Assembly (NCBI GenBank): GCA_024280585.1
Contig: JAJRPW010000109.1
Coordinates: 1-30,793, forward strand
From: Alphaproteobacteria bacterium
GTDB taxonomy: Bacteria > Pseudomonadota > Alphaproteobacteria > Rickettsiales > UBA6187
Direction: 5' to 3'
Length of the DNA: 30,793 bases
Shown piece by piece: positions 25,007 to 25,834 of this stretch; within the stretch, counting starts at the first letter, position 1; every line of letters begins with the position of its first letter. A model generated the notes under the pieces. The model was not told the origin of the DNA. It searched no databases and saw nothing but the letters and a program-made list of their open reading frames with translations. Both the position numbers and the translations under genes were made by a program.

Positions 25007-25834
25007 ATGCCTACAACTAATTGTATATGGGAGCTGCAAAAAGCAGTATATTCTGAATTGAATGGTGATGCGACATTAGCTACGATGATCACGGGGATTT
25101 ATAGCCACGTGCCGCAAGATACGGCGTTCCCGTATGTGGTGATTGGCGATGTGTCATCCAGCGACGACTCAACCAAAGGCGCAACCATAAGTAGGGTCAA
25201 TGTTAGTTTAACTGCTTATAGCCGCGACCGTGGCAATAAAGAAGTTATGGAAATTATAGCAGAAATCAAAAGGATTTTAAATGATAATACCCCGGCAGTA
25301 ACGGGCTGCAGCATCATTAGCAACGAATTTTCAGACAGCCAGGTCACAGAAATAAGAGATGGGCTAACATGGCGGGGAAATATAGATTTTATTGTTGTAA
25401 TACAGGAGGGCGCGTCCAATTTATTGCAACATGGTGATTCTGTAGTACTAAAAATCGGTGATGGAGCAACCCCAACAGAAGGATTCAGCGAAATTGGAGG
25501 GCTTAAAAATACAAACTTTAATTTCAATAATGAATTGAGAGTGAGTGCTGATTTGAGCGGCGGCCAATGGCAGAATTTACTGGGATCAACGGGAATTCAA
25601 TCGCTCTCAATCGGCGGTGATGGCTATTTTAGCGATAGCGCAGCAGAGGAAACATTACGCGGATATGTATTCTCGGCTAGTAAAAATAATTATGAACTAC
25701 ATTTCGGTAATGGTGATAAAATTTCCGGAAGTTTTGTGGTGGATAACTATTCACGATCAGGCCGATTTAATGGAGTGGAAGCGTTCTCGCTGCTTTTGCA
25801 AAGTGCAGGGGGTGTGGTTTTTACGGCTGCTTAG
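25007..25834 (+). CDS. Fusion of DUF3168 tail terminator (g8-like) and tail tube/major tail protein domain (g9-like)
   Basis: N-half LQKAVYSEL...IYSHVPQDTAFPYVVIGD...WRGNIDF; C-half GDSVVLKIGDG...FSEIGGL...WQNLLGSTGIQSLSIGGDGYFSD...GSFVV...FSLLLQSAGGVVFTAA; no stop between the halves. Confidence 0.88.
   Translation: MPTTNCIWELQKAVYSELNGDATLATMITGIYSHVPQDTAFPYVVIGDVSSSDDSTKGATISRVNVSLTAYSRDRGNKEVMEIIAEIKRILNDNTPAVTGCSIISNEFSDSQVTEIRDGLTWRGNIDFIVVIQEGASNLLQHGDSVVLKIGDGATPTEGFSEIGGLKNTNFNFNNELRVSADLSGGQWQNLLGSTGIQSLSIGGDGYFSDSAAEETLRGYVFSASKNNYELHFGNGDKISGSFVVDNYSRSGRFNGVEAFSLLLQSAGGVVFTAA

Follow-up and report, generated by a model that had tools for sequence, protein, structure and literature searches.

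What sets the length of a tail when the protein that closes the tail tube and the protein that builds it are made as a single chain? In long-tailed phages and gene transfer agents (GTAs), a tape measure protein normally sets tail length, and the terminator joins once, as the last component. The question is raised by an open reading frame (ORF) at positions 25007-25834 of a 30,793-nt contig (JAJRPW010000109.1 of assembly GCA_024280585.1, labelled C150 in our contig list), which at its full length is called the window. The contig belongs to a metagenome-assembled genome (MAG) of an uncultured, small-genome alphaproteobacterium from the Rickettsiales (UBA6187) that comprises 1.53 Mb in 205 contigs, is 78% complete, and has a G+C content of 41%. 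The window carries a GTA cluster of the type known from Rhodobacter capsulatus (RcGTA), with g2, g3, g4, g5, g6, g7, g8, g9, g12, and g13 in collinear order, many of them separated by unrelated interspersed genes, and the ORF occupies the normal place of g8 and g9, 3' of g6 and g7 and 5' of g12 and g13. A sequence-only reading of this DNA had described the ORF as a fusion of DUF3168 (g8, the tail terminator) with the major tail protein (g9, the tail tube) in 275 residues, and Pfam bears this out, placing PF11367 and PF06199 in one uninterrupted frame. What is said below about the function of the locus is inferred from sequence.

The ORF runs for 275 codons, uninterrupted by a stop, and both of its halves score far above the family thresholds. 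Residues 12-132 match PF11367 (Tail_completion_gp17, formerly DUF3168) with 84.2 bits against a cut-off of 24.5, covering profile positions 1-123 of 124, and residues 141-272 match PF06199 (Phage_tail_2) with 79.6 bits against a cut-off of 23.8, covering positions 2-132 of 132. The PHROGs give the same division, with the tail terminator family phrog_176 at residues 8-130 (E 2.7e-22) and the major tail protein family phrog_1407 at residues 139-275. The tube half scores 20.5 bits with the NCBIfam equivalog TIGR02126, below its cut-off of 37, which makes it a member of the Pfam family that lies outside the narrower equivalog. Among proteins of solved structure, phmmer matches the tube half to RcGTA Rcc01691 (E 1.4e-14, query residues 141-274 with chain residues 4-136) and the terminator half to SPP1 gp17 (E 1.6e-4) and RcGTA Rcc01690 (E 0.015). 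An AlphaFold2 (AF2) model of the fusion monomer, calculated with 92 sequences, has a predicted local distance difference test score (pLDDT) of 92.3, and confidence drops only in residues 131-150 (pLDDT 73-78). In structural alignment the model superimposes on the RcGTA terminator (6tba_4A) with Z 19.8 and a root mean square deviation (rmsd) of 1.6 over 131 residues (model residues 4-134), and on the RcGTA tube protein (6toa_G) with Z 14.9 over 133 aligned residues at 29% identity; the Foldseek template modelling (TM) scores against the RcGTA terminator and tube structures are 0.90 and 0.72, respectively. The terminator half of the model begins with two helices (residues 6-20 and 22-27) that are followed by a beta sandwich, and among proteins of the tube fold only terminators carry N-terminal helices 1 and 2 (PMC7296036), so that the fusion model has both the terminator-specific helices and the terminator fold. 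This part is not a stand-alone protein of ~130 aa, as it has no stop of its own and runs on into the tube domain. The open frame, the Pfam and PHROGs matches, and the superposition of both halves together establish the identities and folds of the two domains and confirm the fusion.

The fusion is not confined to the window. In G001, a genome that is 98% complete and represents a different genus of the family, g8 and g9 are likewise fused, and a HMMER scan of 1.84 billion cluster representatives yielded five further fused proteins, 254-277 aa in length and 32-43% identical to the query. The fused set (n = 7) is made up of the window protein, that of G001, and P0002 to P0006 (representatives of 50%-identity clusters), and the forms other than that of the window come from six independent assemblies in JGI, NCBI, Logan, and GTDB. 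One of these homologs is annotated in its source merely as a TP901-1 family major tail protein. Genome G002, which belongs to the same family as the window, was rejected as a further case: its two halves share a frame, but three stops and a 38-codon spacer lie between them. Searches of homologous proteins, genome contigs, and metagenome contigs found no second sample of the window's own lineage. The survey across genomes that the sequence-only reading had proposed thus finds, with six further sequences, an architecture that is conserved and recurrent, and the fusion is therefore unlikely to be an error. In all pairs of fused genes the synonymous sites are saturated or undefined and the nonsynonymous divergence (dN) is 0.3-0.7, yet every ORF is intact and both domains are recognizable, which argues for long purifying selection on the fused frame, although the argument is a qualitative one given that the synonymous divergence (dS) is saturated or undefined in every pair. 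Under neutral drift, 275 codons of open frame would not outlast such divergence, and this indicates that the fusion has been evolutionarily maintained. Moreover, in the tree of g8+g9 the terminal branch of the window (0.57) is no longer than those of unfused relatives (~0.59 for G005 and G009 together, 1.01 for G006), and hence there is no sign of rate acceleration on it.

The phylogenies suggest that the fusion arose at least twice, and probably three times. In the g8+g9 tree, the proteins of G001, P0002, P0003, P0004, and P0006 form one clade (support 100/98), P0005 falls among unfused genes of other families, and the window lies in a polytomy in which its nearest neighbor is the unfused G002 at 53% identity. 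When the halves are taken separately, the best matches of the two window halves are unfused (52% and 59% identical), and those of both halves of P0005 are all unfused as well. In approximately unbiased (AU) tests on g8+g9, a single clade of all fused sequences is disfavored (p 0.034), and a grouping of the window with the G001 clade has p 0.55. The capsid tree places the window as sister to the unfused G005 and G009 (support 92/96), and for this gene the test rejects grouping the fused genomes together (p 0.015); on the g6+g12+g13 concatenate such a grouping has p 0.07. Repeated origin would need little by way of mutation, since in at least 20 genomes of the order (~22, including G005, G009, G030, G238, G375, G193, and G202) g8 and g9 lie in the same frame with exactly one stop between them. 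By a rough count, about one half of adjacent g8/g9 pairs are in frame compared with the one third expected by chance, the genomes in this count not being independent of one another. One idea is that low-level read-through of the stop codon might occur at such in-frame pairs.

How the two domains are joined bears directly on what the fusion can do. The domain junction reads FIVVIQEGASNLLQHGDSVVLKIG, with a linker of ~10 residues, and the tryptic peptide across it is GNIDFIVVIQEGASNLLQHGDSVVLK; the stop-free junction IQEGASNLLQH given in the sequence-only reading agrees with the sequence. In unfused relatives the two genes meet as ...QED-TAA-YKEEL-ATG-TAQKGD... (G005, G009) or as ...QHA-TAA-GGKS-ATG-... 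(G030). Compared with these, the window junction is 3-4 codons shorter and both the stop and the ATG are gone, from which it follows that more than one change separates it from the two-gene state. The linkers of the seven fused sequences, among them GASNLLQHGD, GSGSFVGDGN, SSDALLTKAK, DSTAARQNAK, and NGG--IFTGN, align without gaps or differ by 1-2 residues. From the conserved Trp of the terminator to the conserved Ile of the first strand of the tube there are 26-28 residues in every fused form, and the same stretch in the in-frame unfused junctions has 31-32 codons. That 26-28 residues are held across fusions that are probably independent hints at a structural constraint on linker length in the fused forms. 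Linkers of nearly the same length in independent fusions might reflect a fixed distance, across the ring interface, between the C-terminus of the terminator and the N-terminus of the tube protein. No slippery heptamer of the form X_XXY_YYZ, as used in programmed frameshifting, was seen by eye near the junction.

A separate source of tube protein was also looked for. A profile search of the whole 78%-complete assembly, the window included, gives no second match to PF06199 or PF11367, and in tblastn with all of the GTA proteins and with the tube proteins of relatives, none of the GTA structural genes turned up twice in the genome of the window. G001 likewise has a single PF06199 match, which is the fusion itself. 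The sequence-only reading had noted that the window holds no separate tube or chaperone gene, which stands, and it had offered a free tube gene elsewhere as an alternative, which loses ground given these searches of the window's genome and of the fused, more complete G001; nor did the genome yield the second tube gene or the g10 chaperones that it had named as search targets. Indeed, neither the tail chaperone families PF11836 and PF09550 nor the tape measure family PF10145, of which we take RcGTA g11 to be a member, give a match in the genome of the window at E <= 1. A link between the fusion and loss of the tape measure was nevertheless dropped as a candidate, since the strong PF10145 matches in the unfused G002 and G005 fall outside the GTA. 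In G005 the match is in a contractile-tail cluster together with a sheath protein (PF04984) and an FII tube protein (PF04985), and G002 has ORFs of the same sizes and order. As a separate observation, these contractile-tail clusters (L059, G005:C10:30000-46000, and L060, G002:C19) encode a tape measure of 775-885 aa, and in G005 an rve integrase interrupts or follows the cluster.

The tip of the tail has been retained. For g12 and g13, the window copies share 64-74% identity with their counterparts in relatives of the same family, and a homolog of the g14 peptidase is found on another contig of the same genome (C187:4415-4861, minus strand; tblastn E 2e-54 with the G001 copy). G001 keeps g12, g13, g14, and a g15 of 1228 aa, and G005 also has g15. 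The window ends soon after g13, and a search of the assembly, which is 78% complete, did not turn up g15 (PF13550). Since g12, g13, and g14 are kept, and in G001 also g15, the tail is not simply decaying. The contig with g14 appears as a continuation of the GTA in its own right (C187:776-4861), in which g14 is followed by small ORFs related to the phrog_6823-like proteins that precede g15 in G001.

Based on these data, we now put forward a hypothetical mechanism in which the fusion is obligate and pairs a terminator ring with just one ring of tube, so that the tail would be very short; we put the probability of this reading at about one half. The sequence-only reading had predicted a one-ring tail from a 1:1 fusion, and the prediction is plausible. 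Six fusion chains would assemble so that a terminator ring is covalently stacked on exactly one tube ring. The terminator face would dock on the g7 stopper, and the tube face on the g12 distal tail protein and the g13 hub. Each tube domain would have its head-proximal face filled by its own terminator domain and, because of this, further tube rings could not stack. In the predicted tail, the stopper would be followed by the terminator, a single ring of tube, the distal tail protein, and the hub, with the fusion itself fixing the length in place of a tape measure protein and chaperones. In RcGTA the tail is built of one stopper, one terminator, five tube, and one distal-tail hexamer (PMC7296036), and so the tail proposed here, with one tube disc in place of five, would be ~15 nm shorter (four discs of 3.83 nm each). 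In RcGTA the N-terminus of the tube protein touches the terminator, whose distal face includes strand beta6 (PMC7296036), and a short tether from the C-terminus of the terminator to the N-terminus of the tube is for this reason geometrically reasonable. Ring formation, the one-ring stoichiometry, the short tail, and the function of the particle are inferred. By extension, terminator-tube fusion might be a repeatedly evolved way to hold the tail to one ring with no tape measure, turning a siphophage-derived GTA into a stub-tailed particle that resembles short-tailed phages in its tail, in several small-genome, host-associated alphaproteobacterial lineages, a more tentative proposal that we regard as possible, with the odds somewhat against it.

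Several points weigh against the one-ring mechanism. The AF2 monomer has a predicted TM score (pTM) of only 0.68, and how the two domains are oriented to each other is thus not predicted with confidence. The incompleteness of the genome, in which g15 was not found, is a second concern. The unfused G002 and the main cluster of G005 are also devoid of detectable GTA chaperone and tape measure genes, and therefore the loss of these genes, or their divergence beyond detection, is not specific to fused lineages. It is also known that relaxed selection leads to the loss of tail parts in the GTAs of endosymbionts (PMC9254644). Finally, an AGGAGG motif and a TTG codon at the domain boundary of the window could yield a free tube protein.

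This last point leads to a different account of the gene, and it also qualifies what the sequence-only reading had said, namely that the ORF has no obvious internal Met or ribosome-binding site (RBS). As to the start codon, this holds: the Met residues of the fusion are M1, M27, and M81 only, an internal ATG is absent, and neither ATG nor GTG is available in the window linker as a separate tube start. As to the RBS it does not quite hold, since AGGAGG, a possible RBS, occurs 14 nt ahead of an in-frame TTG (Leu140). The gene would then have two products, the full-length fusion from the ATG at 25007 and a free tube protein of ~136 aa from the TTG at 25424, initiated through AGGAGG. The free protein would build a tube of several rings, the fusion would serve as the last ring plus its cap, and the tail would reach its normal length or one that depends on the ratio of the two products. 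The placement is suggestive, in that the pair lies exactly at the domain boundary, Leu140 aligns with position 1 of the PF06199 profile, and in unfused relatives the RBS and ATG of the tube gene occupy the same stretch; furthermore, an internal AGGAGG with an in-frame start within 4-15 nt is expected only ~0.03 times per 275 codons in the long ORFs of the genome. Nevertheless, we consider this account unlikely. TTG initiates weakly, a spacing of 14 nt is unfavorable (it is seen at 3 of ~266 starts with a Shine-Dalgarno-like motif in the genome, where the mode is 6-8 nt), and AGGAGG encodes part of a conserved Gln-Glu-Gly for which the CAG GAG codon choice has a chance expectation of ~15% from genome codon usage. 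Among the fused genes for which DNA is available, that of the window is the only one with AGGAGG and an in-frame TTG at the linker. The other five have zero in-frame ATG, GTG, or TTG codons there, which leaves the fusion as their only tube-bearing product, and hence internal initiation is not something that the fused proteins require as a class. Were it used in the window, the locus would be a nested gene pair that sets the ratio of cap to tube.

The remaining accounts take the fusion to be of little consequence, to be transient, or not to exist. If the tail is in decay, loss of the stop would have been a neutral and tolerated step, the product would have little or no function, and selection would act on head and neck. 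GTAs of the Rickettsiales and Holosporaceae are indeed often without tail parts and their tail genes have higher ratios of dN to dS (PMC9254644), and several of our own data fit such a course, including the missing chaperone, tape measure, and g15 genes of the window's genome, a g8 without an adjacent g9 in G008, the loss of g7 in the G001 clade, and the ease of fusion where a single stop separates in-frame g8 and g9 in at least 20 genomes. It is difficult to reconcile, however, with two domains that are intact and above cut-off in seven lineages with saturated synonymous sites, with the unaccelerated window branch, with a Trp-Ile stretch held at 26-28 residues across probably independent fusions, 3-4 codons below the in-frame unfused junctions, and with the well conserved baseplate genes g12, g13, and g14, and decay, too, is in our view doubtful as an explanation. 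One could also imagine a polyprotein, in which the linker is cleaved after translation, by the prohead protease g4 or another enzyme, to supply terminator and tube in a 1:1 ratio. The cluster does encode a prohead protease and the linker is the least confidently modelled segment, but the linkers share no conserved cleavage motif and a 1:1 supply would still mean short tails or wasted terminator. In addition, an HK97-type protease like g4 acts inside the prohead, while tail proteins assemble outside it, and altogether cleavage is improbable. Least probable, to the point that we give it very little credence, is an assembly or sequencing artefact that hides a stop and a start. The MAG is fragmented, the exact sequence is in no second sample, and the TTA at 25421 is one substitution away from a TAA that would create a TAA-TTG stop-start pair; yet an indel error would break the frame, whereas both halves are in frame, and the same architecture occurs in the six other assemblies.

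The positions of the fusion, its parts, and the GTA genes around it are collected in the table.

Features of the GTA cluster and of the g8-g9 fusion (positions in the 30,793-nt window)
Feature	Position	Strand	Basis or remark
Terminase	11391-12794		GTA cluster
Portal	15293-16513		GTA cluster
Prohead protease	18526-19218		GTA cluster
Capsid	19889-21085		GTA cluster
g6 head-tail adaptor	23929..24471	+	PF05135, phrog_442
g7 head closure / stopper	24623..24967	+	PF05521, 89 bits
Shine-Dalgarno-like AAGGAG, 7 nt 5' of the fusion ATG	24994..24999	+	Sequence reading; 6-8 nt is the commonest spacing in the genome
g8-g9 fusion ORF, 275 aa (P0001), including stop codon	25007..25834	+	Pfam, PHROGs, AF2
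Terminator domain (RcGTA g8 / SPP1 gp17 type), residues 1-134	25007..25408	+	PF11367, fold
AGGAGG, possible internal RBS, in codons of conserved Gln-Glu-Gly	25404..25409	+	
Linker GASNLLQHGDS, residues 135-145, without stop or ATG	25409..25441	+	
In-frame TTG (Leu140), candidate internal tube start	25424..25426	+	
Tail tube domain (RcGTA g9, TP901-1-type), residues 146-275; Pfam match from residue 141	25442..25831	+	
Helical paralog A	25907..26413	+	Sits in the RcGTA g10-g11 slot
Helical paralog B	26415..26930	+	AF2 helical bundle
g12 distal tail protein (DUF2460, Rcc01695 family)	27152..27808	+	PF09343, 255.9 bits; TIGR02217, 242 bits
g13 baseplate hub	28510..29403	+	PF09931 + PF09356; TIGR02218, 266.7 bits

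Between the fusion and g12 are two tandem ORFs, paralogs A (168 aa) and B (171 aa), which are 39% identical to each other. The sequence-only reading had seen here a candidate for a miniature tape measure and had drawn on it in predicting a nearly tailless particle. The AF2 model of paralog B, however, is a compact bundle of eight helices (pLDDT 93.2, pTM 0.88) and not an extended coil. No Pfam, PHROG, or NCBIfam match was found for the paralogs, and the fold of B has no match in the PDB or BFVD and no usable one in the Atlas; the AlphaFold DB gives one unnamed entry (A0A0W0YQH0, TM 0.70). In the unfused G002 and G005, too, both paralogs precede g12, and in G001 one of two copies does so, the other being on contig C110. 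As compact bundles with no informative family or fold match, they were rejected as a mini tape measure or chaperone, and the support that a mini tape measure would lend to a tailless particle falls accordingly, the same ORFs being present in relatives that have separate g8 and g9. They look like a family-specific GTA accessory protein. A further protein of ~160 aa, with no family match, is encoded just 3' of the fusion in fused relatives and of g9 in unfused ones, with 50-64% mutual identity (L024:9558-10046 in G005; L026:5123-5608 and 7753-8238 in G002; L023:10880-11362 in G001; L030:4576-5055 in the P0004 contig). In the genome of the window it is not beside the fusion and is found at C32:1-228, at a contig edge, and at C21:11946-12395.

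Other parts of the cluster vary among the relatives. The G001 clade is without g7 (Phage_HCP): PF05521 is unmatched in G001, and in the metagenomic contigs L028, L029, and L030 the fusion lies directly 3' of g6; the window and the P0005 contig retain g7. In G008, which the capsid tree places as sister to the group of the window and G005/G009, g8 is followed by unrelated low-complexity ORFs with no adjacent g9 (L010, G008:C15:12587-15991), and a distant g8/g9 pair (27-29% identical) is on another contig. Three copies of g12 are present in G001 (C30, C58, and C110) and in G030 (C71, C81, and C88), the latter also with three copies of the megatron gene (g15), and G001 has several tail-tip modules yet a single tube gene. 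Adjoining an extra g12 copy in G001 is an ORF of 495 aa (L061:5702-7189, G001:C110) that combines the N-terminal attachment domain of the g13 hub (PF09931) with the C-terminal specificity domain of a Type ISP restriction enzyme (PF18135, E 6e-85).

If the one-ring mechanism is correct, these GTAs would have a different solution to the problem of tail length, one that is fixed by stoichiometry, and the fusion would be a natural experiment on shrinking a long tail to a stub. It also bears on whether the GTA particles of endosymbionts with "missing" tails work, as the tube would be kept, though as one ring, and the baseplate retained. The fusion is in addition a handy construct for structural study of the terminator-tube interface.

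Among the closest known systems is that of RcGTA, where g8 (Rcc01690) and g9 (Rcc01691), with PDB entries 6TBA, 6TOA, and 6TE9, are homologous in both sequence and fold to the two domains of the fusion, and with which the window shares the gene order g6-g7-g8-g9 ... g12-g13. In RcGTA, however, g8 and g9 are separate genes and there are chaperones (g10/g10.1) and a 216-aa tape measure protein (g11) (PMC7296036), whereas the window cluster has one polypeptide, g10, g10.1, and g11 are undetected, and unrelated genes are interspersed. The reduced GTAs of Rickettsiales and Holosporaceae endosymbionts described by George et al., 2022 (PMC9254644) likewise come from host-associated alphaproteobacteria with small genomes and have head and neck genes under purifying selection and tail parts that are missing or scattered; tail genes are discussed there in terms of loss or non-detection, and the words "fusion" and "fused" are absent from the text. 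In the present case, by comparison, the tube is kept but welded to the terminator, and baseplate genes are retained.

The terminators of siphophages share the fold of the terminator domain (Z 12.8 for lambda gpU, Z 14.2 for T5 p142, and E 1.6e-4 for SPP1 gp17), as does lambda gpV that of the tube domain (Z 13.0). The pairs SPP1 gp17/gp17.1, lambda gpU/gpV, and T5 p142/pb6 follow a common logic in which the head-proximal tube end is closed by a hexamer of the terminator. Terminator and tube are separate proteins in these phages, tube subunits greatly outnumber those of the terminator, and a tape measure protein sets the length. A covalent 1:1 link between the two is not part of the siphophage systems that have been described, and we found no description of a terminator-tube fusion in full-text literature searches. 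Only one solved chain aligned across both domains of the fusion, 9gb5_H (272 aa) from the neck of phiCD508, which, unlike the GTA of the window, is a contractile-tail phage. The alignment covers 216 residues (model residues 10-269; Z 14.1, rmsd 4.0, 12% identity), where the domain orientation of the model is uncertain. From its length and the mention of Gly260 in the paper, the chain is probably the gp53 terminator of phiCD508, and possibly a terminator of two modules whose structure has been solved, which we offer as a lead only. A precedent for tube-fold modules within one chain is provided by T5-like pb6 and by the DT57C and T1 tubes (Foldseek matches 8hrg, 8bcp, and 9l0f). The duplicated domains of pb6 are neighbors within a single ring, which is a trimer of pseudo-six-fold symmetry, and pb6 polymerizes into a long tube all the same. 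The fusion of the window differs in that two different types of ring would be joined along the tail axis, which is expected to stop polymerization.

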